The notes beneath the pieces were generated by a model. That model was given only the letters and a program-made list of their open reading frames with translations, ran no database searches and was not told where the DNA came from. This document shows positions 2,931 to 61,719 of a DNA stretch of 64,000 bases, one piece after another. The DNA comes from Mobula birostris (taxonomy: Eukaryota), in NCBI RefSeq assembly GCF_030028105.1, contig NC_092378.1, positions 139,923,731-139,987,730 of the forward strand. Reading direction: 5' to 3'. Within the stretch, counting starts at the first letter, position 1, and every line of letters begins with the position of its first letter. Made by a program: the position numbers and the translations under genes.

Positions 2931-3306
2931 GTAAAAACTTATCCAGAACGGGGAATATGAGGTTTCCTCTGGGGGCAGGGACTGCCATAGACAGGAACGC
3001 TCACTACGATTAATGGTAGCTGCTTGCCGACCTATAGTAGGCTTTTTCCCCACGACCCTTCCCGGTTTTAGTTGGGAGTTTTAAGGCCCATGTGCCACAC
3101 ACTGACCGGCACCATGATGATTTGTATTGTCACTGTAGCTGCTGTGCGGTTTTATGTTTGAACATTTGTCATATCCAGATAGGAGAGTTCATGCTTTTAA
3201 ATTGAAAGTCATTGGTTGAGTAAAAAAAATCTCACATGTAATGGAACGTACTTGTACTTTGGTACTTTATAAACTTCAGTAACGATATTAGTCAATACCA
3301 CTTCCA

Positions 3307-3523
3307 AACAACAGGAATTCTGCAGATGCTGGAAATTCAAGCAACACACATCAAAGTTGCTGGTGAACGCAGCAGGCCAGGCAGCATCTCTAGGAAGAGG
3401 TGCAGATTTTGGATCTCCCCCTCCCCCTCCAACTTTCAAATCTCTTACTCACTCTTCCTTCAGTTAGTCCTTACGAAGGGTCTCGGCCTGAAGCGTCGAC
3501 TGTACCTCTTCCTAGAGATGCTG
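3307..3523. mobile_element. Short Penelope-derived element with inverted terminal arms and a degenerate hammerhead
   Basis: 13-bp TSD aataccacttcca (3294-3306 / 3524-3536). Inverted arms cagcatctctaggaagagg / cctcttcctagagatgctg. Confidence 0.75.
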
Positions 3524-3552
3524 AATACCACTTCCACCTGTTTGTATAAAGT

Positions 3553-4529
3553 TTGTATTATGCCATCACCTGCATTGCCTATATTTTTCCAGACAAATGT
3601 GCTCACTCCATTATCCCAACGCCTAAACAGAAAGAGTTCCTCTTGTTCTTACCTACCACCTCATCATCCTCCGCAAATTCTATCTTCTCCAGAGGGATCC
3701 TACCACCAAGCACATCTTTACCTCCCTTCCACTCTTCACTTTCTGCCAAGATCGCTCCCTCCATGATTCCTTTGTCCATTCATTCTTTCCCACTAATCTC
3801 CCTCTTCGGGGATTATCTCTGCAAGTGGCCAAACTGCTACGCCTGCCCATACATGTTCCTCGCCTCCATTCAGAGTCCCAAACATTCCTTCCAGATGACG
3901 CAACACCTCACCTGCGAAAGATCATCTATTGTATCTGGTGCTCCCAATGCGGTTTCCTCTACATTGGTCGTAAATTGGGGTACCGCTTTCTTGAGTACCT
4001 CCGCTCTGTCTGCAAAAAGTGTAATTTCCCTAGTGGCCAACCATTTTAATTTCTATTCCCATCCTGTTCTGATATGTCGGACCATGGCTTCCTGTTGTGC
4101 CACGATGAGATCACTCTCAGAGTTGAAGAGCAGCACCTCATATTCCGTCTGGGTAGCCTGCAAACTGATGGCAAGAACATCCTTTTCTTCTGTCAGTAAT
4201 TTTTTCCCTTCCCCCCCCCCCCCACTTGTTCTATTCCCCACTCTGGCCTCTTACCTCGTTATGCCTCCCCCTTGGTGTCCTTCCATCTTCTCATTGTGCC
4301 ATGGTCCGTTCTCCTCTCCTTTCAGATTCCTTCCTCTCCAGACCAAAACCTTTTCCACCCACTTAGCTTCACCTATCACCTAGCTATCCTCCTTCTCCTC
4401 CCCCCTCTGCCTTTTTATTCGGGCATCTTCCCCCTTCCTTTCCAGACTTGAGGAAGAGTCTCAGCCCAAAACATTGACTAAATTAATTTCCATAGATGCT
4501 GCCTGACCAGCATTTTGTGTGTGTGTTAC
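3553..4529 (+). mobile_element. Penelope-like retroelement 3' fragment (GIY-YIG endonuclease remnant plus pLTR)
   Basis: ORF 3825-4049 has IIYCIWCSQCGFLYIG (GIY-YIG type). 12-bp TSD tttgtataaagt (3541-3552 / 4530-4541). Confidence 0.8.
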
Positions 4530-7274: not shown

Positions 7275-8416
7275 GAACATAGAACAGTACAGCACAGGAG
7301 TTGGCCATTTGGCCCACAAGGTTGTTCCGAGCCAAATAAGTTAATATTCAAATAGCCGACATAACTAATCCCTTATATCTACACAATATCCATATCCTTC
7401 CATTTTCCTCACATTCATGTGCCTATCTAAATGTCTCTTAAAAGTCCTTAATATATCGGCCTCTACCACCACCCCAGGCAGTGCATCCTAAGGAACCACC
7501 ACTCTCTATGTAAAATAAAAACTTGCCCTTCTCGTCTCCTTTGAAATTACCCTCTCTCACCTTAGTGCTGTCTGATATTAGACTTTTCAATTCTGGAAAA
7601 AAAGACACTGTCTGCCTGCTCTATCTATGCTTTTCATAATCATATAAACCTCTATCAGATCTCCCCTCAGCCTCCGCAGTTCCAGAGAAAACAACCCAGG
7701 TTTGTTCAGCCTCTTGTTATAAAACATCTTGTCCAACCTCTTGTTATAAAGCATGGCCTGTAATCCAGACAGCATCCTGGTAAACCTCTTCTGCACCCTT
7801 TCAAAAAGCCTCGACATTCTTCCTACACTGAGGCGACTAAAACTGTATGCAATACTCCAGATGTAGCACAGCCAGAGTTTTATAAAACTGCAACATAGGT
7901 TCCTGACTTGTAATGCCTTAACTAATAAAGGCAAGCATGTCATATGTCTTCTTAACCGCCCCATCAACCTGTGTAGCCACCGTTGGGGAGCTAGAAACTT
8001 GGATCTCAAGATCCCTCTGTACTGTTTCTTTATATTCTGCCTATTAAGGTGCAACACTTCACATTAACCTTCACATAGGTTAAACTCCATCGACCATTTC
8101 TCCACACACATCTGTAACTGATCAGTATTCTTTGCCAGTCATTTATGCTATCCACATACCACCAATCTTTGTATCATCTGCAAATTAACTAATCCACCTA
8201 TGCGCTGTACATATTCATTCAGGTCATTTATATAGATCACAAATAGCAGAGGTCCCAGTACAAATCCCTACGAAACATCACAATCAGGGACCTCCAGATA
8301 GATTAAGTCCCTTCAACCTTTACCCTCTGTCTTCTATGAGCAAGCCAGTTCTGAATCCAAACGGCAAATTCGCCATGGATCCCATCATCTTAATCTTCTG
8401 GATGAGCCTCCCATGG
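7275..8416 (-). mobile_element. CR1 LINE 3' fragment
   Basis: ORF 7587-8057 has ERVQKRFTRML...LFSLELRRLRGDLIEVY, plus a CR1-type 3' tail. Confidence 0.85.
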
Positions 8417-11400
8417 TCAATTAAGGGTAAAAAGTTAATCTTAAATAAATCTTTGTGTTTACAAGTAATTTTAATCCCAAGATATGAAAAATAATTATTA
8501 ATCAATTTAAACAGAAAGTTATGATATAAGGGAAGTTGTTTATTAATCGGGAAAAGTTCACTCTTACTAAAATTTAATTTATAACCTGAAAAGAGACTAA
8601 ATTGTGCTAATAACTCTAAAACAGCAGGGATGGATTTTTGAGGATTAGAAATATATAAAAGTAAGTCATCAGCATAGAGTGATATTTTATGGGACTTTAA
8701 GCCCCGAGTTATCCCAGTAATATTTGGAGATTCTCGAATGGCAATTGCAAGAGGTTCTAATGCAATATCAAATAATAAAGGACTAAGAGGACAACCTTGT
8801 CGAGTACCTCAAAAAAGAGGGAAAAAAGGTGAGCTTAGAGAGTTAGTACGGACTGAAGCCACAGGAGAATGATATAACAGTTTGATCCAGGATATAAATT
8901 TCGAGCTAAAATTAAACATTTCAAGCACCTTAAATAAGTAAGGCCATTCTACTCTATCAAAAGCTTTCTCAGCATCTAAAGAGATAACACACTCAGGAAC
9001 ATTTTGTGAGGGGGTATAAACAATATTTAACAGTGTGCGAGTGTTATAAAAAGAGTAACGACCTTTAATAAAACCCGTTTGGTCTTCCGAAATAATAAAA
9101 GGAAGTACTTTTTCTAATCTGTTTGCTAATAACTTAGAAAAAATTTTAGAGTCAACATTTAATAAAGATATTGGTCTATAAGATGCACATTGAGCAGGAT
9201 CTTTATCCTTCTTTAATATTAGAGAAATTGACGCTCTATTGAAAGATTCGGGAAGTTTACCAAGTTTTAATGAAGCCTCGAAAACCCTACAGAACCAAGG
9301 GATTGATGAAGGTGCAAAACATTTATAAAATTCTACGGTAAACCCATCAGGGCCAGGAGCTTTCCCCAGGTTCATAGAGGAAATAACATTCTTAATCTCA
9401 TCAGTGGTAATGGGAGTATCTAGCATAGAAGACATATCCTGTGAAATCTTAGGGAAGTCTAGGTTATCTAAAAAAAATCATTAATATATTTAGAGTCTCG
9501 AGGAGACTCTGATTGATATAAGGAAGAATAAAAATCAAAGAAAGTTTGATTAATCCCCGCATGATCAAGTATCAGTCGGTCATTTTGATTATAAATCTGA
9601 TTAATTTGAGATTTAGCATAATTAGACTTCAATTGGTTAGCCAACAGTTTGCCAATTTTGTCACTGTGTACATAAAATTCACTTCTTGTTTTCTTTAATT
9701 GGTTTGCAATCGAGGACGAAAGTAATAAACTGTGTTCCATTTGAAGTTCAGTTCTTTGTTTATATAACTCCTCAGAGGGAGCTGTAACATATTTCTTATC
9801 AATTTCCTTAATCTTGTCCACAATTACCAACTCCTGCTGCTTCAGCTTCTTCCTCAAAGCAGCAGAATACGAGATAAGCTTTAAAAGTATCCCAAAGAAC
9901 GTTCACAGAAATATCCTCTGTATAGTTGATTGTTAAAAAAAAGATCAATCTGTTCATAAGATTGATGATCAAAAGATCATAAAGTTAACAAAGTCCGAGT
10001 CCTGAAGCAACAGCGAATTAAAACGCCATTGTCTATTATTTTGTGTATTGGCCTGAATTTTAATAGAAAGCTTAAGTGGAGCATGATCGGAAATGGTTAT
10101 AGAGTCATAATCACATTTAATCACTGAAGAAATAAGACGAGAGTCAATAAAGAAATAATCAATTCTTGAATAGGAATGGTGAACATGTGAAAAAAAAGAA
10201 AAATCTTTTTCCGGAGGATGCAGAAAACGCCAAATGTCCGTCGACCCAGAGTCAGAGAGGAATGAATTAATCAAAGTTGCAGATTTATTCAGTAAGGTCC
10301 GTAGAGGAGCCGAATGGTCCAAAGCTGGAGATAAACAGGTGTTAAGATCTCCGCCCCAGATCAATGAAAACTCATTCAAATTTGGGAACTGATTAAATAA
10401 TGATTTATAAAATTCCGGACAGTCCATATTGGGAGCATAAACATTAACCAAAACTACCTTTTTATTAAATAGTAGACCACTAACCAGTAGAAATCTACCA
10501 TTCGGATCAGAAATAATATCATGTTGTATAAAAGTAACTGAGGAGTCTATAAAAATAGAGACGCCTCGAATCTTAGCGTTAGAGTTCGAATGGAACTGTT
10601 GTTTCTTTCAGAATTTAAAAAAACATAGTCTGTCCCCTTCCAGAATTTAAAAAAACGTAGTCTGTCCCCCCTCCACACATGGGTCTCTGGTAAAAATAAA
10701 ATTTGTGCTTTAAGTCTCCGGAACACTTTAAAAACTTTTTTCCTTTTAATAGGATGGTTAAGACCATTAGTATTCCAGGAAACAAAATTAATAACAGACT
10801 CCATAAACCCTAAAGTCAACCCGCAACAAGGAGGATTGACGATAGGCTCGACCCATGAACCCGGAAAGGGAACAGAACAAATAAGAGATACCGGGAAGGA
10901 GAACGCAACCAATACTTCAATAGTGTACATAGCCCAAGAAGAAAAAAACTAAAACGTGAAGCCCCTCCCACCACCCCCCACCCCATGACCCCAAGGCTAA
11001 ATCTAACACAGACCAGCCAGAAAGAAGCAAGCACTAAAACTACCCCCATGACTTCCGATAGACTCTCCCTAAAAAAAAAGTGTAAATATAAAAAAGATCA
11101 GCTAGTTATAAAACAGTAAAAGAATAAAAAAGTAAAACAAACACTTAATATAACAGAGAAAAAGCCAGAAAATATAAAACAAACTGCAACAAACCCCAGA
11201 CCCTATGAATAAACAAAAAAAGAAATAAAATTATTAACATAAACTAGTTATGAAAACCTACAAAAAAAGTAGATTTAAAAACTACAAAATTTAAGGCCTC
11301 AAAGGAAATACGTAGAAGGACGCTGAGGGAATAACCACCCAGAATCCCCTGGGAAAAAGAAAGGAATGACGCAGATAGAAAGAAAGTTTAGAAACCATAT

Positions 11401-12521
11401 TAATTAATCAAAAATAAACTTTTCTGCCCATATAAGGCAAAAAAAAATTAAGGCTGACAGATTCACAACCTCCGATCAAACGGAGATAGTTAAAAATTAC
11501 GATTAAGATGTTGAGGGTGAAAATTGATCCAGATAACTCTGGGCATCCGATGGAGATTCAAAAAAACGAAGGGCTCCATCCAACGTACGAATCCTTAGAC
11601 GTGCTGGGTAAAGCAGCGCTGGTTTTAAATCCATCTTGTTGAGTCCCGACATCACAGATCTATAACGAATCCGTTGATCCCGAATTGGTTTACTGAAATC
11701 CTCCACAAATCGGAACTTAAGATCCAAAAAATCAATGTAACCTTTAGATCGAACGAAACGAAACAGTTTCTCCTTGTCTCGAAAGTAATGAAAACGTAAG
11801 ATGACATGCCGAGGTTTATCTGACTTAGACGAGTATGATGGAACTCTGTGAACACGATCCAATAACGGTGGTTGGTCAGGAAGTACAGTAGGAAATGCAT
11901 CTTTTAAAAGTTGAGAAAAATACTTCATAGGGTTAGAAGATTCGACAGCTTCATGCACCCCAATCATTCGAAGATTCTGCCGTCGCATTCTGGATTCTAA
12001 GTCAGAGTTTCTAAAGGTCAAAAAGTCAAGTTTCTTCTTCATTACCTTAATTGTTTCTTCGATTTTCTCCATCTTCAGTTCATTTTGTTGCGTGGATTTT
12101 TGAAGATCAGATATAACCGACTGATGTTCCGTAATAGATGTTTGAATCTTATCGATTGAATCGGCAATTTTCTGGAAATTAATTGAAATTTCCGCACGAA
12201 TCAGCTCCGTAATGGAGGTTGAAATTTCCCTTTGAATTAGATCCGATATAGCTTTCGAAGTCACCGGTGGTTCGGTCGGAGGGAAATCGGTACCTTTCGG
12301 TCTAACCGGAGGTTTGCCGTCCTTCCCGTTTTTTCCATTCTTAGACATAGCAGACTTTAAAAGCATCCGATTATCAAAGAGCCCAATTTATTTCAAAATA
12401 TTGTAAAAGTCGATGCCTTAATGGTTAATTAAAATATAGCTGATCATAAGAAGAAAAACTCAGAGGTAATGGAGCGAGTCAAGAACACGACTTCACTCCA
12501 TGAGCTCTACCGGAAGTCCCC
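8414..12521 (-). mobile_element. L1-clade LINE: 5'-intact, 3'-truncated, frameshifted ORF2
   Basis: 5' end GGGGACTTCCGG. ORF1 11503-12366. APE endonuclease pieces (SWNTNGL; GGDLN, SRIDY, SDHAP) and RT pieces (KAPGPDG, YRPISLLN, LDAEKAFDRV, QGCPLSP, YADD). Confidence 0.92.
11503..12366 (-). CDS. L1 ORF1p (coiled coil plus RRM/CTD), uninterrupted 287-aa frame
   Basis: LESRMRRQNLRMIGVHE, DRVHRV, PRHVILRF and LLYPARL are typical L1 ORF1 motifs. Confidence 0.8.
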   Translation of the reverse strand: MLLKSAMSKNGKNGKDGKPPVRPKGTDFPPTEPPVTSKAISDLIQREISTSITELIRAEISINFQKIADSIDKIQTSITEHQSVISDLQKSTQQNELKMEKIEETIKVMKKKLDFLTFRNSDLESRMRRQNLRMIGVHEAVESSNPMKYFSQLLKDAFPTVLPDQPPLLDRVHRVPSYSSKSDKPRHVILRFHYFRDKEKLFRFVRSKGYIDFLDLKFRFVEDFSKPIRDQRIRYRSVMSGLNKMDLKPALLYPARLRIRTLDGALRFFESPSDAQSYLDQFSPSTS

Positions 12522-16119: not shown

Positions 16120-16700
16120 GAATTCTACAGATGCTGGAGATCCAGAGTAACGCACGCAAAATGCTGGAGGAACTCAGCAGGTCAGGCAGCATCTATGGAA
16201 AAGAATAAAGAGTTGATGTTTTGGGCTGAGACCCCTTTTCAGGACTGGGCAGGAAGGGGAAAGAAGCCAGAATAAGATGGTGGGGTGGGGGTGGTGTACA
16301 AGCTGGCATATGATAGGTGAAACCAGATGAGGAGGAAGGTAGGTGGGTGGGGGAGAGAGGGTTTGAGTGAGAGGAGAGTGGACAGTGGGAGAAAGGGAAG
16401 GATGTGAGACACCAGAGGGAGATGGTAGGCAGGCGAGGAGAAGAGAAGAAACAAGGTAAGGGGTAACCAGAATAGGGAATGAAAAATGGAGGGGGTAGAA
16501 ATTAGCTGAAGTTAGAGAAATCGGTGTATATCCCATCAGGTTAGAGGTGCTTCTCCTCCAAATTGACAGTGGCTTCATCATGGCGGTAGCGGATGCCACA
16601 CATACACATATATTGTATTGGGCATGGGGATTGGAATTATCATGGTTTATATCACCAGGAAATCCTGTGTTTTGTAGACAGAGCGAAAGTGCTCAATAAA
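16120..16700 (-). mobile_element. Penelope-like element 3' fragment
   Basis: Reverse-complement similarity to 4050-4529, including the pLTR/hammerhead-like segment at ~16210-16246. Confidence 0.7.
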
Positions 16701-24106: not shown

Positions 24107-26663
24107 TTCTTTGTACCCTGTTAATTTTGTGAATGTGCTTGAAGATCTGTAACCTGATGCTCTTTAGTAAAGAATATCTGTAATGGCAGACATTGTGCTC
24201 TGGGTGCTATGTTAAGGAGCTATGTATAGCTGTGTTGCCTAAGAGTGCTTGATTCAGGAGGTTATCTGCTTCAACAGAACTAGCCTATTTTTTTAACAGC
24301 CAATTTACCCTGTAGGACATTAGTTCACACAGCAACTTGAGTTATTTCAATATAGTGAGTTTAAGTATAAACTTCAGGAATTAAAGACATACTGTAGTTG
24401 ATTCCTAATCAATAAGTTTTCAAATCAAATCTAATGCTGCAATTAATATTTTCCATACTCAGATATTTTTCTGAATGAAGTGCATGTAAAAATAGTATGT
24501 TATATAATAGACTGCCTTATGCATACCTCCTATTAAGAATGCCACAAGTGACTGAGGAATTCACTTTCACAAGGCTTGTTTCGAAAGTAGAATTTAATTT
24601 GTATACTATAATTGGGAAACAAAAATCATTGATTGTTTCTGAAGTGTTTTAAATTCACAAGAGGCAGCATCATGAGTTATTGAAACTTATTGAAGCACGC
24701 AGTATCATCGGTGCTATAACATAAAGATCATTAGAGACATTATTTTGCCTGCTGTTCATTTGAGACATATGGACTGACATTGCTTATGATCAGATAGGAA
24801 CTGTTCTTCCAGATGATGTTAACTTTCATTTATTTACAATGTGGGCCCATCCTTAATTTCCCTTGAATTGACTGATTTGTTGGCCATTCAGGAGGAGTCA
24901 ACCATGTAGATGTGCAGGTCTGGCTCCACATATCAGTCAGATTGGGAATCGACTTTCCTTAAAGATTGTTCATGAACAAAATGGGTTGCAATGATAATCC
25001 GGTGATTTTGTGGTTATACAAGCTTTTACATTTACTCCTCCATCAGTGGTGGATTTGAACTGAAGATGTAATTGCTGTGGTATTGTGTTTCCTGAATGAC
25101 TGATTAGAAGTGTGAAGCTTGATTTCTACAATTGAGGTTTCATCTGAAGGAATATTTTACTGCATCTGCTCTGTTGTACTTGCAAGTGAAGGAAATAAAG
25201 ATACCTTTAAGTCCTGTGGTGGGATTGAAGAGAACATTAATTTAGCATAAAAAAAATCACTAACCTCATGTTTCATTGAACAAAGAATAAAAATGATGAA
25301 AATTGAAAAACCGTATTCAAAAGATTTTGGAATTGCTATATTTAGAAATATACTGAAATGTCTACGTTTCTAAAACCTCAAATTTTAAAAAGAGGAAGTG
25401 ATAGAAATGCTCAGCAGATTAGGGAGTATATGTAGATATACAGGTCTGAAAGTACACGTATCAGATTAGCTAAGACTGGGAGTCAAAAAGGCCAAATAAT
25501 TTTTTAAGATCCAGGTAAAAGAGGAGTGGGATAGGTTGGATATCAGGAATATACAGAATATAATTTTTTATTGAAGCAGAACTAAAGACCATAATTCTCT
25601 ATTAGTTTGAAAATAGTTATGGAAAAAGATGGGACTAATCCACAAATTAAAATCCTAAATTGAGGTAAGACAAAAGTGAATTGGGATAGGCTATTGCAGG
25701 TAAAGATTTGCCTTCTAAAAAGTCTGGGGGAGTTTAAGGATGGTATATTTTCGTTACAATGAAGTGTTTGTCTTTTGTAGGGTAGGAAAGTGCAAAACAA
25801 AACATGGATTTCAGATGAGGGGGGTAGCGTTTAAAAAAGGATCAAAGGGAAAATTTTACACACTGAGTGTGATGGGTATCTGGAATGAGTTGCCAGCGGA
25901 AGCTAGAGTTAGGTACAATTGCCATGTTTAAAAGACATTTAGAGATGTACATAGATAGATAGGTTAGAAGATAGAGGCTGTCTAAATTTGTAATGAGGTC
26001 AAAATTTACTTTTAAGTCCGAATGAAAGGGTAGACTTAAAAATGTTCTGAATTTTATGAAATAATCTAATCCAAAATTTGTCCTGGGTGTCACTGGGATG
26101 TGTGCTTAATTTTGAATAACCTTTAAATATCACTAATTTTGACACTTAGATTTATGTCTCCATTAGATTAATCTTTTGTTTCTTTGTTCATTGTTTTTTT
26201 GTTTAAATTTCCCACCCTACCACAGATCTACTTTATTGGATTTTTTTCCCCCATTTCTTGACATCTTAAAACAAGTCTAGTTCTTAATCTTTACCCATTC
26301 TGATGAAAGACACAAACATGAAATGCTGCCTCCTTGTCTCTATAAGTGCTCTTTGACCCACTTAGCACTTATAAATTTTTCTCTTTTTATTTCAGATTTA
26401 CAGCATTTTTCAGTATTTTGGTTCGGTAGAACATTTTGTTCATAAAATATATAATTTGCCAAGTGGCTAAATTTTCTTCTTGCGTTCCTACTGACATCCA
26501 TCAGTTTCAATTCTGTTTCTGGTTCACCAAACCAGTAAAATAATTTCCCCGAGCACTGTGAAACATTTTACTACCTTTTATGCTGCTTAATGTTCAAGTT
26601 AGTGCAGTTATTGTTATTTCTGCTCAATCAGCTGAGCATTATTTGCACAACTTTAATAAGGTT

Positions 26664-26800
26664 AAGTCCTGATGAAGGGCCTCGGCCTGAAACATCGACT
26701 GTTTATTCCCTTCCATAGATGCTGCTTGACCTGCTGAGTTCCTTCAGCATTTTGGGACTCTTGCTCTGGATTTCAGAATGTGCATAATCTCTTGTGTTTA
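26664..26800 (+). mobile_element. Solo Penelope pLTR with a minimal hammerhead motif
   Basis: AGTC-CTGATGA-AGGGCCTCGGCCT-GAAAC-ATC-GACT at 26665-26700; TSD taataag(g/c)tt. Confidence 0.75.
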
Positions 26801-27008
26801 TAATAAGCTTACTGAACCTGAAGGAAATATTGCATCAATAACAATTTATATTGGCCAGAAATGTCAGGCCCCCATTAACTGATTAATGTATTGTTATAAT
26901 TGCTTATGCAGATATTATGTGCTTGTAAAAGATGAAGTAATCACAATATAGCCACTTGAATAATTTGACTGTGATAATTGTAGGTAACATCTCATGTTGC
27001 GCTTGATG

Positions 27009-28822
27009 TTAGCAGTTAACAAAATAGTCCTCGCTGATGTCTCTCAGATCTGTACTAGCTATGGCTTGTGGGCTTGCACATGTGATGTTATTGTATGTAT
27101 ACACAAGTGTATGGCTTTCATCCCTTTCTACTGTTGATTCAAAGTAACGGGGCACAACATGGGGGTTCTCCAGACAGTAGTCTCTGAGGGACTTCAACAA
27201 GCAGTCGCAATGCCATCTATTACCATCCAACAGTAATTGTTCAAGTTCTGATGACTGTTTCAAAAGTTGATCTGGGAAATGTCTTAAAGAATTGTTCTTG
27301 AGGTTCAGATATTTTAACCTGGTCAGTGGCTTAAAAGTATGATTGTAGAAAAACTCAATAAAATTCTCTGATAAATCAAGCCAAGAGAGCTGCTGAAGAG
27401 GTTGAAAGGCGATGTCAGGAATTTTTGCAAGTTTATTGCACTTTAACAGAAGATATTCCAGATTTGATATTCCTGTGAAGGCATGAGGAGGTAGCTCTAC
27501 GAGTTTGTTGTACCTGAAATCTAGTTCCAAAAGCCCTCCTAAGTCACTGAGGCTATGATTCTCAATGACTGAAATGTGATTATTTTGCAAGAAAAGTCGT
27601 CGAAGGCCAATCAGTCCAGAAAATATGTTGGGTTGAATTCTTGTGACTGCATTATTTTCTAAATGCAAACTATGAAGATTAGAAAGACCCTTAAAGGTGT
27701 ATTCTGCTAAGTCCTTTAAGAAGTTGCTAGATAGATTAAGGATGGCTACATCACAAAGACCAACAAATGCGCCTGGTCTGATCTCCTGTATTTGATTATT
27801 ATTCAGAGTGAGGATTTCTAGTTGGACTAAGCCCTCAAAAATGTTCTCAGGAAGACTTCTAATTTTGTTGTACCCAAATTGGAGCTCTTCTAGAAATTGA
27901 AGTTCTCTGAAGGTCTTGTGCCTTAACCTTGTGATGGAGTTGTTGAACACTCGAAGTACGTGGAGGTTTGGGAGCCCAGCAAATGTCTCCTCATGCAATA
28001 TGGTAATACGATTGTGGGACAGGTCTAACCACCTGAGAGACTTCATTCCCATGAAAGCTCCAGGCATGATAATGCTGATTTGATTATGACTCAAATAGAG
28101 CTTCTGAAGTTTTTGCAGTTTCACAAAGATGTTCCTCTTAATAATTCTCAACAGGTTTGTAGACAGATCAAGTTCCTTCAGCTCTGTCACGCTGGTAAAT
28201 AGTTGTGGCTGCAGGTACATAAGTCTATTTCCTGCTAAAATAAGCTCCCTTAACTTAGACAAATTATGAAAACTTGCTGTAGGCAACACTGCAAGATTAT
28301 TCCAACCCAGATTCAGGTACCAGAGATGGGAAAGGCTGGAAAATAATGTTTCCTCAATTTTGCCAAAGTTGTTGTTGTTCAGACTAAGTGAGCCAAGAAT
28401 TGGAGTGTGCTGGAATACTCTTGGTGTCAGGTGTTTCAGATTGTTCCTTTCCAAGTGGAGGTGGACCAGTTGCTTCAAACCATAGAAAGCATGTTGGTCT
28501 ATGCTAACTATCTGTCCTTTCTCAAGGTTCAGGAAGTCCAGATTTGGCAGATTTCTGAAAGCATAGGATGGAAGAACTGTGAAGTTGTTACTGTCAAACC
28601 ACACTGTTTTGGCATTAGTTGGTACATCGTTAGGAATGCTGGTAAGATTGTGAGAGCTGCAGTAGACATTCAGTTCTTCAGTGTAGTCATCGAAAGTGCA
28701 TGTGCACACGTGAGGGCATGTGAAATTTTTGTTATCTGTCTGTCCCTCTGGTGGTAACTGTGAGTTTGTTCCCATCAGCGAAATGAACCTCAGATAAACA
28801 ATAAGCAAAACAAAGCAAGTTT
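27009..28822 (-). CDS. IGFALS: IGFALS exon 2: insulin-like growth factor-binding protein acid-labile subunit (LRR protein)
   Basis: Acceptor ttttcttttag|AA. Encodes a hydrophobic signal peptide, LRRNT CPHVCTC, about 20 LRRs, LRRCT WHCDC and the C-terminus CASPQAIASTDLRDISEDYFVNC, like human ALS. Synteny with NUBP2 agrees. Confidence 0.95.
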
Positions 28823-34020: not shown

Positions 34021-35359
34021 GAGCATGTGTTTAGAGTAATTGTTCAAAGTTATAAGAATAATAGGGTTAAGGGCTTGAGGAGGGTGAAATTTGTAAAAAG
34101 ACAACAAGATGCAAGGTAGATTGTGAGGTCAAGAGTCCCTTTTCTCATACTGGGAGCTGTTCAATTATCTTCTAACAGCGGGATAGTAGATGCATTAAGA
34201 AATGTTTTGATAGGTACATGAATCATGAGAGAAACAGAACAAAATGGACATTGTGTAGGCAGAGGGGATTAGTTGGCCATTTGATTACTAACTTAATTGG
34301 TTTGGCACACCATTGTGGGCCGAAAGGCCTGTTCCTGTGTTGTACTGTTCTATGTTCTATGTGTCTAGACAAGTTCCCTGTGTCAATATGTAGAGGACTC
34401 TTTTCATGTACCCTTTGAAAACATGTCAGTGGAGTACAATTTATTGTATCGTAGGGCATGAGATGCGGCCCAGGAGGGGCAGGCACGGGTCTGTCTGTTC
34501 AGGAGCCAGGGTTGGATCAATCTTCATCTAGCAACTCGTCCACTGCCATTCTAACATGGGTGGCTCTGAGCTGGCATCGCCTGATGGAGCGCTTGAAGCA
34601 CACAAACCTCCAAATGACATCAATGTGTTGATCCAGGTCATGGAGGAGGGAAGTACAGTTAATCTTTATTAGGTTACATTTATAAAATTGATCTGTACCC
34701 TTCTGTTTTAGGCAGGTTGCTTATGGGGTTTATTTATATTGAAATGTTAGTTAGTGAGTACCTCTCAAAAGTAATTTTGGCATCTTTAGTTTTGAATAAC
34801 TTTCATAACTTTACTTGGAATCATTTCTATTGGAAGAATAACTTTCCAACATGTTAAATAACAGAGTAACTATGCCAAGGAAGGACAATACAATTAAGTT
34901 CATACACAGTTTCATAATTAAGTTTTATCCAGCCAGTGAAGGTAAAACATTTATGAGTTTTATATTTCACTTCACCGTCCACAAAATGGATAATCTAATA
35001 AGATTATTCCTGCTGCTATGCTTTCAAATGCAAGTAACATGTTACCCCCATTACCTATCTGTACAGGCGTGATGTGTAAAGCGTTGGCATGATTTTCCAT
35101 TTCATGCTAATTCAAGATTGAAAAGAAAAGCAGAACAAAAGGCTTTGTCTTGAAATAAAGTTCTCACTGCTTTCATTTTGATAAACTTTGATCCCATTGC
35201 TCTGAAGTTTATGCTAATGACAGTCAATGCTGGAAATCCAGAACACAGCCCAAAATGTCAGAAACACTCAGCAAGTTGGGCAGCATCTATGGAGAAAGAA
35301 ACAGTCAACTTCAGAAAGGGTTGAAACTTTAGATAGGGAACCGGTGATTCCCAAACTTT

Positions 35360-35608
35360 CAAGCAACACACGCAAAATGCTGATGGAACACAGCAGACCA
35401 GGCAGCATCTATAGGAAGAAGTACAGACGACGTTTCGGGCTGAGACGCTTCGTCAGGACTTGGCTCAAAACGTCAGCCTGACGAAGCGTCTCAGCCCGAA
35501 ACATGGACTGTACTTCTTCCTATAGATGCTGCCTGGCCTGCTACGTTCCACCAGCATTTTGTGTGTGCTGCTTGAATTTCCAGCATCTGCAGGTTTTCTC
35601 ATGTTTGA
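35360..35608. mobile_element. Palindromic Penelope-derived element with hammerhead motifs on both strands
   Basis: 13-bp TSD attcccaaacttt, ~100-bp inverted arms and CTGACGA...GAAAC cores at 35424-35460 (-) and 35474-35510 (+). Confidence 0.8.
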
Positions 35609-36609
35609 ATTCCCAAACTTTTTTGGGTTACCACCCCCTTGGCTCCCAGACCATATCCCCAGTGCTCCCTCCTTTTCTGGCTGTTATATAAAAAAACTAT
35701 GAATAATTTTGATTTACAATGCACAGTGAAAAAAAATAGGAACTGCAAATTCTAAAGCCATGACAAATAATTGCAAAAATTATTCAAATCTATTTAAAGC
35801 TACAAATACATTTATTTCTTTATTTAATTATAGTAAAAACAATTTTCATCAACAATTTTAGAGTGTATATTATAAGTCAAACTATGCACTACTGCTGAAG
35901 AATTTTGGCTGGAAATGTCGACTGTACTTTTTTCCATAGATGCTGCCTGGCCTGCTGAGTTCCTCCAGCTTTTTGTCTGTGTTCCTTAGGTTTCCAGCAT
36001 CTGCAGATTTTCTCTTGTTTGTATTCACTACTTTGTTGCCTTTTCACCTTTCAATGAGATGGATGGGCTTGGTACAGTGCTATCAGCTTCTCAACACTAG
36101 GCTCAATGTCGCTCAGAAGGAGTCTCAGATCCCACATGCAGTAACTTGTGGTCTATTTTGTTGCTTTGGAAGAAGTTCGGTGACTGCACTGAAACCGTAT
36201 TCCACGAAGTATGAAAGAAAGTAATAACCCCAATGGTGCCCCATCTGTTGCACGGACAAGAATGCTGAAGAGTGGAATGTGCTTCTCTTTGAAATTTTGT
36301 GACACGTTGGTGATTAGAAACTTGATTCTGATTTTGATTCAGAGTTTGGGCAAATGTCAAGGCAAAGTGAGTTGTGGTTTGTCAGAAGATTGTGCGTTCA
36401 ATCCAATCCACTGAAGGCTGAGTACTGCGTTGCCTGAGGTTTGGTCATTGGATGAGATGTTACGCCCAAGTCACTTCTGGTTTCTCATCTGGACATAACA
36501 GACACAAAGAAGGACAGAGGCACAGGTGCCAGTGCATTATTTAACCCTCAGAAGTTGTAATTTAAGTTGAGCAGCTGTTCTTTATCATACTGATAATTTT
36601 AATTTTTAG

Positions 36610-38580: not shown

Positions 38581-39014
38581 GACCAACCAATAGACAACCC
38601 CTTAGGAGAACATCATATGTGACTTGAGTGATCGCACTACTACTAGGCTACGCCAACCGTAACTTCCTCGTGGAGTAACACATACAAAGTGCTAAGGGAA
38701 CTCAGCAGTTCAGGTAGCATCTTTGGAAAGGGCTTTCTGGCTTCTTCCCCCTTCTTTTTCAGTCCTAATGAAGGGTCTCAGCCCCAAAAAATCGATTATT
38801 CATTCCCATATTCCCTATTCTCCAGCATCTGCAGAATCTCTTGTGGTTATGATTTCCCTCATGAATCTTCCTTACTATTGCAAAGAACAACTGTCAAGTT
38901 ATTTGCCTTTAATTAGTTCATAATGAACCACACTCGTTGAAGTGACTGCTAATTTGGTGTCTGTATGTTGTTTTCAGAAGATTCCCTGCCACCAAGGTTA
39001 ATCTGATTGGCTTG

Positions 39015-43649: not shown

Positions 43650-44430
43650 TACAGTCCTGGGCAAAAGTCTTGGGCATATGTATATATATATATGTACATA
43701 TATAGTTAGGGTGCCTAAAACTTTTGCACAGTACCGTAGTAACTCCCACAATGCTGGAGGAACTCAGCAGGCCAGGCAGCAGCTATAGTCAACGAGTATA
43801 GTCAACGTTTTGGGCCAAGGACTGCTGAAGGGTCTTGGCCCAAAACGTCGACTGTACTCTTTTCCATAGATGCTGCCTGGCCTGCTGAGTTCCTCCGGAA
43901 TGTTGTGTGTGTGTCACTTGGATTTCCAGCATCTGCAGATTTTCTCTTAGCTGTAGTAACTTTATCTATTGCATGGTACTGCTGTCACATGTAAAAAAAA
44001 ACTAATTTCATGACATATGTGAGTGATGTTAAACCTGATTCTGATATGGGTCTCTGTTGTGGACTGAGAGTGGGAAGGGGGCAGGGAGAGGGGAATCATG
44101 GTTGTGAAAAGGGGAAGGGAGAGGGAAGCATCAGAGACACATTCTGTAACGATCAATAAACAAAATGTTTAGAATCAAATTACTTCGCCTGGTGTCTCAG
44201 GGCTGGGTGCGTCTGCACACACTCCACCCCTCGACCCTGGCACTCCTTCTCTGCCACCTATCCCCCACCCCTCCCGTGGCGCTCCACCCTCACCATTCCC
44301 AACATCCTTTGCGCCTTCCAGATTTACAAACTCGCTCTCTGCTCCACGTTGAGAAATGCAGTGCTGTGCAGCAGTCTGAGGTACACCAACTATACACACT
44401 GTACGTGCCTCACACTTTTGTACAGTACTG
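43650..44430. mobile_element. Tc1-like MITE interrupted by a palindromic Penelope-derived element (~43745-43952)
   Basis: MITE core matches 41036-41544; the insert is flanked by the repeat gtagtaact. Confidence 0.75.
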
Positions 44431-51460: not shown

Positions 51461-52110
51461 ATCACCTGCCAGCTTCTCATTCCCCCACCTATCTACCCTC
51501 ACCTGTCTTCACTTCTCACTCGCCCACCTATCTACCTTCCCCTCAGCTGTCTTCATTTCTCACTCCCCCACGTATCTACCTCTACCCTTACCTGTCTTCA
51601 CTTCTCACTCCCCCACCTATCTACCCTCACCTGTCTTCACTTCTCACTCGCCCACCTATCTACCTTCCCCTCAGCTGTCTTCATTTCTCACTCCCCCACG
51701 TATCTACCTCTACCCTTACCTGTCTTCACTTCTCACTCCCCCACCTATCTACCCTCACCCGTCTTCACTTCTCACTCGCCCACCTATCTACCTTCCCCTC
51801 AGCTGTCTTCACTTCTCACTCGCCCACCTATCTACCCTCACCTGTCTTCACTTCTCACTCGCCCACCTATCTACCTTCCCCTCAGCTGTCTTCACTTCTC
51901 ACTCCCCCACCTATCTACCCTCACCTGTCTTCACTTCTCACTCGCCCACCTATCTACCTTCCCCTCAGCTGTCTTCACTTCTCACTCCCCCACCTATCTA
52001 CCCTCACCTGTCTTCACTTCTCACTCGCCCACCTATCTACCTTCCCCTCAGCTGTCTTCTCTTCTCACTCCCCCACCTATCTACCCTCACCTGTCTTCAC
52101 TTCTCTCCTT
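51460..52110. repeat. Pyrimidine-rich minisatellite with higher-order units
   Basis: 39-45-bp monomers (cacctgtcttcacttctcactc(g/c)cccacctatctacc...) arranged as 2 x 128 bp then 4 x 83 bp; unit starts at 51500, 51628, 51756, 51839, 51922, 52005, 52088. Confidence 0.95.
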
Positions 52111-52189
52111 CCAGCTTGCACTCCTTCCCCTCCCCCAACTTCTTCCTCTTTCCTTTCCAGTCCTGGTGAAGAAATTCGGCCCGGAACAT

Positions 52190-52495
52190 TGACAATAGAC
52201 AATAGACAATAGGTGCAGGAGTAGGCCATTTGGCCCTTCGAGCCAGCACCACCATTCACTGGGATCATGGCTGATCATCCACAATCAGTACCCCGTTCCT
52301 GCCTTCTCCCCATATCCCTTGACTCCACTATCTTTAAAAGCTCTATTTAACTCTTCCTTGAAAGCATCCAGAGAATTGGCCTCCACTGCCTTCTGAGGCA
52401 GAGCATTCCACAGATCCACAACTCTCTGGATGAAAAAGATTTTCCTCAACTCTGTTCTAAGTGGCCTGCCCCTTATTCTTAAACTGTGGCCTCTT
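52190..52495 (-). mobile_element. CR1 3' end with (CTATTGT)n tail
   Basis: gacaatagacaatagacaatag followed by the reverse CR1 3' UTR; it splits a Penelope pLTR. Confidence 0.75.
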
Positions 52496-52835
52496 TTTCT
52501 GATTTTTTATTATATTGATTCTTATTGATTCTTTATTGTTTTTTTTATTCTTTATTCTTTTCTATAGATGCTGCTGGACCTTCAGTATTTTGTGTGTGTT
52601 ATTCTTGATTTCCAGTGTTTGCAGAATCTCTTCCATTTACTATTTAGTAAACATGTTTTAGAAGCATAGAAAACCTACAGCACAATACAGGACCTTCGGC
52701 CCACAGTGCTGTGCCAAACATGTTCTTTTCAGATTTTGAAAATCTTCTGTTCTTGTTCTGGTCCTTCAAGCTGTAGGTTTTCCTGCTGGATACACACTCA
52801 GCTGACTCCCTAAGCGCTGAAGATTTGTACTGGGG

Positions 52836-53475
52836 TTGTCCATTTTATCCAGTGCTCCCAAAGTGGCCTCCTCTACATTGGTGAGACAGGTCGTAAACTG
52901 GAAGACTGCTTTGTTGAGCGCCACCACTCCATCGGCCAAAAGAAGCTCCCGGTGGCCCAACATTTCAACTCTGATTCCCATTCCCATTCCGACATATTGG
53001 TCCACGGCCTCCTCTTGTGCCAAGATGAGGCCTCTGTCAGGGTGGAGAGGTAACACCTTATATTCCATTTGGGCAGCCTTCAACCTGATGGCGTGAACAT
53101 TGATCTCTCTTTCTAATAAAAAAAGTTTCCATCACCCTTCCTTCTTCTTCTAAATCCCACTCTAGCCTCTTATCTCTTCTCGCCTACCTATCATCTCCAC
53201 CTGGGTCCCCTCCTCTTTTCCTTTCTCCTATGATCCACTCTCCTCTCCTATCAGATTTCTTCCTCTCCAGCCCTTTACTTTTTCCATCCACCTGGCTTCA
53301 CCTATCACCTTCCAGCTAATCCTCCTTCCACTCCCTCCACCTTTTTATTTCGGCATCTTCAACCTTCATTTCCAGACCTCAAGAAGGGTCTCGGCCCAAA
53401 ACGTCGACTGTTTATTCATTTCTGTGGATACTGTCTGACTAACTGAGTTTCTCTTGCATTTTATGTGTGTTGCTC
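52836..53475 (+). mobile_element. Penelope-like element 3' fragment
   Basis: Homolog of 3930-4529 (ctctacattggtgagac, LYIGET) with a pLTR carrying a degenerate hammerhead at ~53373-53410. Confidence 0.75.
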
Positions 53476-53852
53476 AAGATCTGTACTGTTGTTATTTCTG
53501 TTAATGAATAACCAGTTGACCCCATCTCGAGTGGTTAGGGAAATCAGAAAAAGTAGATTTAAATCTTCATGAGGGAAGATGGACAAGCAAATTGAAGAAT
53601 TTTCCATGTATAATAAAGATATGTTAAGGTTTTATAAAATGTTCAACAGACTTATGAGAAAGTTTTAAACTTGACACCCATAACCTTCTATCTCTATGTT
53701 GGCCTGGGGCTGAATTATAGGATAGAAATTCTTCTATAAAGCCTTGTGCATTGTTCAGTGAAATACCCCATAAAATTTCTGCACGTCAGGACACACTGAA
53801 CTGTAATAGTATTTACCTCCGTAAACATAAGCACTTTACCCTGAATAACACT

Positions 53853-59683: not shown

Positions 59684-59755
59684 AGGGGGCACCTGGATTT
59701 GAACCAGGGACCTCTTGATCTGCAGTCAAATGCTCTACCACTGAGCTATACCCCC
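59684..59755 (-). tRNA. tRNA-Cys(GCA)
   Basis: GGGGGTATAGCTCAGTGGTAGAGCATTTGACTGCAGATCAAGAGGTCCCTGGTTCAAATCCAGGTGCCCCCT: 72 nt, complete cloverleaf, GCA anticodon, U73 discriminator, intact A and B boxes. Confidence 0.97.
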
Positions 59756-61719
59756 ACACACACTTTCAACCTGTGGCAGACCTGGTCCAAATTTAGCTAG
59801 ACCGGTTCAGGCACATTCTGTGCTAATCTGGGAACCTATATAGTGTCTTTCTTCATCCCATAATTTCCAGGAATGTAGCAAGGCAGCGCCTCCTATGCCA
59901 TTGGAGGAAGTTGACATGTAGAGATCCATGAAACTTCTGAGTTTACAGCTTCTAAAGCTAGTTGTTTCTATTTGGTAACCCAGACGAATTTCAAATGGCA
60001 GCAACCTTCCAAGCAAGGAATCATAAACACAAGAGATGCTGGAAATCTGGAGCAACACACACAAAATGCAGGAGGAACTCAGTAAGATTCTCACTGCCTG
60101 AAAAGTTGACTGGTTATTCCTCTCTATAGATGTTGCCTGATCTGGTGAGTTTCTCCAGCATTTTGTGTGTGTTCCAAACAAGATATCTTTTTGATAGTGG
60201 GTCTACTTAATGCCCTTTATCCAAGGAATCCGTAGTTAGCCCCTCAGGTTCATCTGTGCCAAAGGCAAGCAGCAGTGGTTGACTCTTAATGGCTATCCAA
60301 AATGGCCTTGCAATCTCTTAGTTCAGGGTGTAATTGGGAATGGATGCTAAATATTAACTGTGCAGTCTCATGATTGAGTTACAAAGATTCTGTCCTTTTC
60401 CAAAGTCAACATGCGTAATTGATGAAACTGAACTTTGATAAAGTAGGTACAGCGACAATTGCCCATTACACAACCCACCCAATTGAAATGATCCAGGATG
60501 AATATTACACTGCTGTAATAGAGGAGGACTTTTACCCATCTTGAGCACTTTCCAACATTTAATTTCGACTTTGTATGCTTTTTAGCTGGAATCATCAGCA
60601 GCCAGCAGCCTGACTCATTTGCTGCTTTTCAGTACAGGAAAACTTCCCACCCTTGTCTTGAGATTGGATTCCACCCAATGTCTGCCTGGGTTGTGTGAAG
60701 CAATACTAGAGCTTGTATGGTACTCATTTGGCAAACCAGTCACACAGATTCATTTTTCTTATCTATTTTTTTCTTTTCCCTTCATATTTGTTGACCCCCT
60801 TTTGGTCTGCAGCACCAAGGATTAATGAAGGTTCTTCCAAGAATTTTGTGCTATTTTTGTATATGGAACTTGAAGGGTAATGGATGAAATCTATTTTCCT
60901 GGAACTGATAATATAAACTCTATCTGCTGTTCTCTCTGTTTGCCATCGCTTGATATCCTGATTTATTTAATGTGTACAAATGAGTATCATTAAAAAGTGC
61001 ATCGCTTAAAGGGAAATTACATGCTGCAGATTGCAGTGAGAGTAATTCAAAAGAGGTATATTTAGAAGTATTGTACGTAGTCTGCAGCACGTCACCATGG
61101 TTCACTGGCACCATCTTGCAAGGTCCAGAAATAACAGGGCAAAATTTGCACTGTTTTAAAACTTTGGAACTGACAAGTGATTTATTTTAAATAGGAGGTG
61201 TAATTAATTGACCCAAATTTATGTTGTTTGATTTATTAATTCACTTTTGATAAACTGTGCTCTAGGTATTGGATGTTTCCAAGAGTTAGCACATTATTTC
61301 CCCTCAAGGACCTTGTCCTGAATCCTTTCTCGGCTGAGAGGGTGAAAGTTTTCCTTCTTCCCCATTTAGATTCAAGATTCAAGATTGTTTGATGTCATTT
61401 CCAGTACACAAGTGTAAAGGAGAACAAAATAACTGTTACTTCAGATCCAATCCAGCACAAAAAAAACACAATAAGACAATGAACGCAATAATAAGAAAGC
61501 TATAAATATAAATACATAAGCTAGCTTACATAGAGAACAGAAACTGATTGTATGCCATAAAGTGACACTAGATACAGGAGTGTCTAGAATTTTTAAACTT
61601 GCCAGGGGCTTTCAAACGTTAGTTAATGTGTGGATACTGACATCCATCGGAGGAGGGTTTTTGCAATTGTTGCTCTTTTATCCAATTCTTAATTTTATTC
61701 TGGAATTTAGAGGAAATGG

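Follow-up and report, generated by a model that had tools for sequence, protein, structure and literature searches.

The 249-bp insert at 35360-35608 is best explained, with a probability of roughly 0.8, as two short ribozyme-bearing ends of a Penelope-like element (PLE) that lie head to head inside a 13-bp TSD and that came from one abortive insertion primed by both cut ends. It is probably a dead and unremarkable by-product of a single PLE insertion, not a member of a family that spreads as a palindrome. All positions refer to the 64,000-nucleotide stretch of Mobula birostris DNA that was analyzed (hereafter, the window), and the features are collected in Table 1. Statements attributed to cited papers refer to excerpts of those papers.

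Table 1. Features of the insert and of related copies in the window (strand "." denotes head-to-head units).
Feature	Position	Strand	Remarks
TSD, left copy, 13 bp	35347..35359	+	final two bases match the left arm as well (2-nt microhomology)
Left arm, 5'-truncated pLTR without tail	35360..35460	-	from 4 nt before hammerhead core C3 to +97
Minimal type I hammerhead	35424..35460	-	core, GUC and ACGU palindrome intact; stem I 3/5 pairs; stem II C-C mismatch
Middle piece, degenerate 3' half-hammerhead	35459..35474	+	ends exactly at GUC cut site; 2 nt common to the left arm's 5' end
Right arm, 5'-truncated pLTR	35475..35608	+	start same as the left arm's; end at +131
Second hammerhead motif	35475..35510	+	core boxes kept; triplet AUG; stem III palindrome lost; stem II C-C mismatch; stem I minus one base
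One-sided extension, 32 nt	35577..35608	+	fits the 30-40 bp PLE tail (excerpts of Craig 2021, Arkhipova 2013)
TSD, right copy, 13 bp	35609..35621	+	exact repeat
Second head-to-head stub	3307..3523	.	exact 13-bp TSD (3294-3306, 3524-3536); centre and ends differ
Third head-to-head stub	43745..43952	.	TSD 9 bp exact (11 with one mismatch); centre differs
Fourth head-to-head stub	60018..60171	.	11-bp TSD with one mismatch; centre differs
Decayed coding end of the autonomous partner (RT thumb end, cysteine linker, GIY-YIG), then pLTR 4401-4526	3630..4526	+	tblastn E 1e-36
Second GIY-YIG remnant, then pLTR 53333-53480	52829..53480	+	tblastn E 9e-34

Anatomy of the insert

The first-pass annotation of this DNA had described a ca. 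250-bp palindrome with inverted arms, a 13-bp TSD and a third half motif between the arms, and all three were borne out. The insert is a head-to-head palindrome whose arms (35358-35457 and 35477-35576, 100 nt each) are 91% complementary, differ at 9 of 100 positions and are separated by a 19-nt gap. The sequence ATTCCCAAACTTT is present without a mismatch at both insert edges; when junctions were placed at random in the 64-kb window, a direct repeat of at least 13 nt adjoined them in 41 of 20,000 placements. The arms are unequal because the right one extends 32 nt further, and the termini are thus asymmetric. The RNA of the insert folded into one hairpin of -179 kcal/mol (z = -21.6), a value matched by none of 200 shuffles, which supports the long hairpin in either orientation described earlier. 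The unit is also non-coding, as the annotation had it. The tip of this hairpin is imperfect in the predicted fold and carries a 7-nt loop.

The middle piece differs from the family copy at 43834-43849 at 1 of 16 positions, and none of 5,000 shuffles came within two mismatches. From the left arm it differs at 4 of 16 positions. The left arm begins 4 nt ahead of the core and shares 35459-35460 with this plus-sense piece, which ends in GTC; after the piece, the right arm restarts at the start point of the left arm. In the family copy, the counterparts of the middle piece and of the sequence from 35506 onward (43834-43849 and 43850-43874) are contiguous. Given this contiguity and the restart, the centre amounts to a simple inversion junction plus a duplication that begins with stem I and stops at the cut site.

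Both arms bear the variant GCGTCTCAGCCC, as the annotation had reported. It had also contrasted this variant with the other copies, which holds only in part: the CAG portion occurs in 3 of 10 other aligned window copies, so only the G-to-C change is distinctive of the arms. A possible inversion from one template draws on that single shared base; against it, the middle piece is without the CAG change of the arms, and copying from arm to arm near the hairpin tip at a later time would give the same pattern. Either the middle piece came from a second RNA, or the changes shared by the arms were copied between them after insertion.

In its most explicit form, the later-copying account holds that a simple inversion came first and that the left-arm hammerhead was subsequently carried into the right arm (31 nt, 35475-35505) by a DNA-level fold-back or template switch, in which case one RNA template would not be the source of the shared variants. 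This course of events would refine the two-ended insertion without replacing it, and we consider it possible, with the odds some two to one against. It draws on the contiguity in the family copy, on the middle piece without the CAG change and on the identity of the arms over the 26 nt nearest the centre, compared with 9 differences in the remaining 74 positions. The last contrast is not significant (P = 0.058). Moreover, a 32-nt segment that includes the ends has 3 differences, a rate like that of the rest of the arms, and CpG decay is frequent and may recur independently.

The one unusual feature of the insert, seen in this single case, is the exact coincidence of the end of the middle piece with the ribozyme cut site. 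Conceivably, the RT arrived at the hammerhead's 5' edge and then switched to the 3' terminus of a pLTR RNA that had cleaved itself in vivo; such a jump would explain why the piece ends at GUC and differs from the arms, but we rate it as improbable. In the excerpts of Frangieh et al. (PMC11167929), cleavage was not required in vitro and no reads ended at the cut site. If the jump did occur, stub-rich ray genomes would hold a fossil record of hammerhead-cleaved RNA used in Penelope transposition, a role for cleaved RNA that has been unseen in vitro.

A contig of organism C matches 34572-35357 and then continues with 30 letters that could not be placed, which hints that organism C lacks the insert at this site. 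The contigs from organisms A and B end at 35293, and none of the 15 joints listed, of 1,798, crossed the empty site. The flanks differ from organism C at 34 of ca. 786 positions and the arms from each other at 9 of 100 (P = 0.03 for 9 or more when 4.3 are expected); with three CpG-site changes set aside, the excess in the arms has P = 0.26. The arm divergence is somewhat high for an insertion as young as an absence in organism C would imply.

The target site (35340-35359 and 35622-35700) lies within another repeat, with raised depth and a paralogous contig from 35612. The start of that repeat may resemble the end of a hAT-type MITE; no inverted partner or paralogue of this host repeat was found in the window. 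Elsewhere, an IGFALS-like leucine-rich repeat gene occupies 27012-28775 on the minus strand (E 1.5e-202 to PDB 7wrq_A), ca. 6.5 kb from the insert. A tRNA gene with anticodon GCA is located at 59684-59755 on the minus strand (Rfam, 73 bits), and L1-type LINE fragments at 8320-12387, also on the minus strand, contain ORF1-like, endonuclease and RT frames, as judged from their translations.

The parent family and its hammerheads

A profile of the arm sequence, derived partly from the paired copies themselves, gave 31 matches in the window that merged into 30 segments. The transposon remnant of the window had a single protein match, P0001 from the ray Mobula hypostoma. This protein combines the RT motif YIDD with a CX4CX2C linker and a GIY-YIG domain of the CCHH type (E 4.6e-4 against Pfam GIY-YIG, just short of the curated cut-off), and it matches 85 longer proteins, most of which have an RT domain. 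In a tblastn search of the window, P0001 matched 3630-4181 and 52829-53110 (E values in Table 1) and, weakly, 16609-16511 (E 0.001); the first two remnants also match the full-length RT proteins P0002 and P0008. A Pfam search of the window's own endonuclease remnant frames gave no match. Arm sequence follows each of the three GIY-YIG remnants on the same strand, which identifies the arms as pLTR sequence from an endonuclease-positive PLE. The Penelope-like origin and inverted pLTR named in the annotation are supported. The three endonuclease ends (3630-4526, 52829-53480 and 16609-16120) are decayed, with frameshifts and stops, and each is followed by pLTR.

The cysteine linkers read CKRNKCYTC in P0001 and CKWPNCYAC in the window frame 3550-4383. 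The linker of Nematis is related to that of Neptune. A CX2-5CxxC linker between RT and endonuclease is a feature of the Neptune clade (PMC8557442), and by this character the parent family is probably Neptune-like. A literature search, limited in reach, returned no description of this family in sharks or rays, and a search with the family motif had 0 matches in each of two sets, viral contigs and metagenome contigs.

The pLTR end is far commoner in the window than the coding part (30 segments versus 3 remnants). In four organisms, 84,283-124,735 contigs per run mapped to one 2.2-kb stretch, and the summed contig depth was 10^5-10^6 over family copies versus ca. 12 on unique flank, which is a measure of abundance, not of copy number. 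The preponderance of pLTR ends would suit a template in the form of a short RNA made of a solo pLTR (a SINE-like monomer of ca. 135 nt derived from a PLE) that starts at stem I, with palindromes formed afresh at each insertion. Likewise, start points no more than ca. 10 nt from the core are common to both arms of the insert, the right arm at 43823 and the single, TSD-bounded copies at 26661 and 35893. Yet the copies at 3439, 4401, 16288, 38735, 52139 and 53333 reach upstream into the PLE 3' region, others start further down, and stalling of the RT at the structured ribozyme would yield the same pattern; a solo-pLTR template thus appears unlikely.

Single pLTR stubs that start at the 5' edge of the hammerhead lie at 26654-26807 and 35883-36031, with apparent TSDs of 7 bp and of 10 bp with one mismatch, respectively. 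At 51473-52193, there is a 630-bp tandem array (periods 39-128) that is ca. 70% like the PLE 3' untranslated region at 16311-16449 and is followed by a pLTR hammerhead remnant. It is apparently a satellite born from a PLE end, and the ribozyme is absent from its unit.

Hammerhead motifs had been reported on both strands of the insert. Both cores are indeed present, with CTGACGA...GAAA boxes at 35478-35501 (+) and 35456-35433 (-), but the stems are damaged in both, and the plus-strand motif reads GAAAC-ATG and thus lacks the GUC site. A conserved core with an NUH triplet occurs on the minus strand (GUC) and not on the plus strand (AUG). Stem II of the insert, with its C-C mismatch in both motifs, was calculated at -1.4 kcal/mol versus -5.1 kcal/mol in the family majority, and the stem I duplex at +0.7 (minus) and -1.3 (plus) versus -4.7 kcal/mol. 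At position 35427, in the minus-strand motif, the pairing base was carried by 98.5% of the mapped depth in run X1.

Minimal hammerheads of the PLE type require a same-sense partner. The insert has one complete core per strand and no same-sense complete pair, and in the predicted fold of the full-length RNA the core bases are unpaired with a probability below 0.02. On these models, activity of either motif is unlikely. In the favored reading, the hammerheads are passengers carried in from the pLTR.

The minimal type I architecture that the annotation recognized is found in the majority of 10 other window copies, in which stems I and II form round the core. Over 12 decayed copies, the family fold pairs 73.6% of cells versus 22-46% in slid registers. 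Covariation in the same 12 copies showed no excess, with 408-486 of 500 sets of shuffled partners scoring equally high. An Infernal or RNAmotif search for type I hammerheads had been proposed as well; with E values up to 1 admitted, the Rfam search of the 64-kb window gave no hammerhead. Directly ahead of stem I at 4425-4450, 38740-38765, 52145-52165 and 53355-53380 there is a pyrimidine tract with a terminal CAG, which resembles a 3' splice site; in the Penelope of D. virilis, an intron terminates at helix I (PMC4209133).

Head-to-head pairs across the window

Adjacent minus/plus neighbors among the 30 segments formed 8 head-to-head pairs (at 3305, 20208, 22787, 35357, 38673, 43741, 55836 and 60034) versus 0 tail-to-tail pairs. 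Random placement yielded a mean of 0.56 head-to-head pairs and a maximum of 4 in 10,000 trials. In all 8 pairs, one arm reaches at least model position 168 and its partner ends at or before 150; for the pairs at 60018 and 22787, the end of the long arm was determined by visual inspection past the model match. A TSD of 9-13 bp accompanies 4 of the 8 pairs (13, 13, 9 [11 with one mismatch] and 11 with one mismatch), and no convincing TSD was found at the remaining 4. The pairs at 38673 and 55836 have almost no arm overlap, and the scores of the latter are weak (E 0.23 and 0.0067). Altogether, the pairs span different subfamilies and ages. The stub at 3294-3536 has a short arm that ends ca. 76 nt early, and it lies directly upstream of an older PLE coding remnant.

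The annotation had proposed a retrozyme-like, non-coding family mobilized in trans, here taken as a non-autonomous one that is transcribed and re-inserted as a whole palindrome by the PLE enzyme, and had added that breakpoints unique to every copy would mean independent truncation products of the autonomous element. The centre differs in 8 of the 8 pairs, and the breakpoints are therefore unique within the window. The tail is one-sided, on the arm that starts in the stem II loop here and on the other arm at 43.8 kb; the ribozyme unit forms no tandem array in the window (none head to tail among 21 TRF rows), and the insert offers a single core per strand, with broken stems and buried in the hairpin. 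Propagation as a palindrome is thus very unlikely, even with a clean TSD, no coding sequence and the statement that pLTR sequences are enough for mobilization in trans (PMC3846280). Some breakpoints do recur: they are non-random, with several 5' ends either in the loop of stem II or where stem I begins, and there is a junction at 43.8 kb like that of the insert. Its tail is on the opposite arm, so a hot spot fits better than a shared master. A MITE-like palindrome that moves as a unit is likewise unsupported in the window, as the ends differ by 32 nt and 8 of 8 window centres differ.

An artefact of assembly or library fold-back, to which the lack of a centre-spanning contig (none among 32 of ca. 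400,000 pieces listed, in a mapping swamped by paralogues) could point, is scarcely credible against 9 differences in 100 arm positions, unequal ends, a TSD and the same layout in seven other pairs.

In the window, the family has thus left a head-to-head stub every 8 kb or so, always with the tail on a single arm. Such junctions, tabulated across a genome, could separate two-strand target priming from fold-back self-priming and could show whether RNA ends cut by the ribozyme enter the process.

Proposed mechanism and known systems

For the two-ended PLE insertion, the following course is proposed. An RT-endonuclease from an intact copy elsewhere would have nicked both strands ca. 13 nt apart, and the staggered nicks would have given rise to the TSD; mobilization by an enzyme encoded elsewhere, as put forward at first pass, is supported. 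Each 3' end would then have primed cDNA on pLTR RNA, one at a far site (+131) and one at a near site (+97 to +99), and this difference in priming sites would leave a tail on one arm only. Both cDNAs would have halted at the 5' edge of the hammerhead. One of them would have gained the 16-nt piece by template switching, and the ends would have been joined via the 2-nt microhomology. The inserted copy would have decayed afterwards.

For one of the arms, fold-back self-priming (Arkhipova 2013) could take the place of priming by a target end, with the verdict unchanged; Arkhipova et al. favor self-priming for such junction palindromes (PMC3846280). The imperfect hairpin tip with its 7-nt loop is compatible with self-priming, so either route may have been taken. 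In vitro, the purified PLE protein of Anolis cleaves both strands and extends them, and it initiates reverse transcription at two internal positions between which the tail lies (PMC11167929). Two-strand priming at the present insert is suggested by analogy with this in vitro work on an element that is Poseidon, and the family here looks Neptune-like. A literature search, limited in reach, gave no account of twin priming in PLEs.

In L1 twin priming, two target ends prime, and the 5' part becomes inverted within one TSD. The arms of such L1 copies carry different sequence, whereas both arms of the insert copy the same 100 nt.

The closest counterparts are the inverted-pLTR insertions of endonuclease-positive PLEs (PMC3846280, PMC8557442), with which the insert shares head-to-head pLTRs, a TSD around the whole unit, a 30-40 bp tail at one end, 5' truncation and a palindromic junction. 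In Pen2a of Adineta, there is an inverted pLTR, the TSD measures 9 bp, and one inverted pLTR carries a tail of 31 bp (PMC3846280), and an inverted, 5'-truncated copy and a one-sided tail of 30-40 bp are listed among general PLE features (PMC8557442). Unlike these insertions, the insert is only 249 bp long, has no coding sequence between its ends and contains at its centre an extra 16-nt piece that ends at the ribozyme cut site.

The family hammerhead agrees with those of metazoan PLEs (Cervera and de la Pena 2014, PMC4209133) in its CUGANGA/GAAA boxes, the extra base between 9 and 10.1, G10.1-C11.1, a 5-bp stem I, the palindromic 15.2-16.2 and the absence of loop 3. Pairs of hammerhead motifs on opposite strands, 100-700 bp apart, had already been noted in 2014 (PMC4209133). 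In contrast, the stems of the insert are broken, its plus-strand motif is without a cleavable triplet, and its cores are ca. 20 nt apart.

With PAc (Poseidon, Anolis; Frangieh et al. 2024, PMC11167929), the insert shares a hammerhead at the start of the pLTR-ORF and, in the proposed course, extension on both strands; in PAc, two start sites of reverse transcription ca. 100-150 nt downstream bound the tail. PAc belongs to another clade, as P0001 has a cysteine linker and Poseidon is without one, and inverted products are not reconstructed in the excerpts of that paper.

Finally, non-LTR retrozymes (Li, Clavereau and Pollet, bioRxiv 10.64898/2026.07.22.740005) are likewise non-coding, pLTR-derived, furnished with a type I hammerhead and present in a chondrichthyan. 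According to the excerpts of that work, they are head-to-tail tandems with at least two complete ribozymes in the same sense, whereas the insert is head to head with one per strand. It is thus a new example of a known PLE insertion structure and not a retrozyme.
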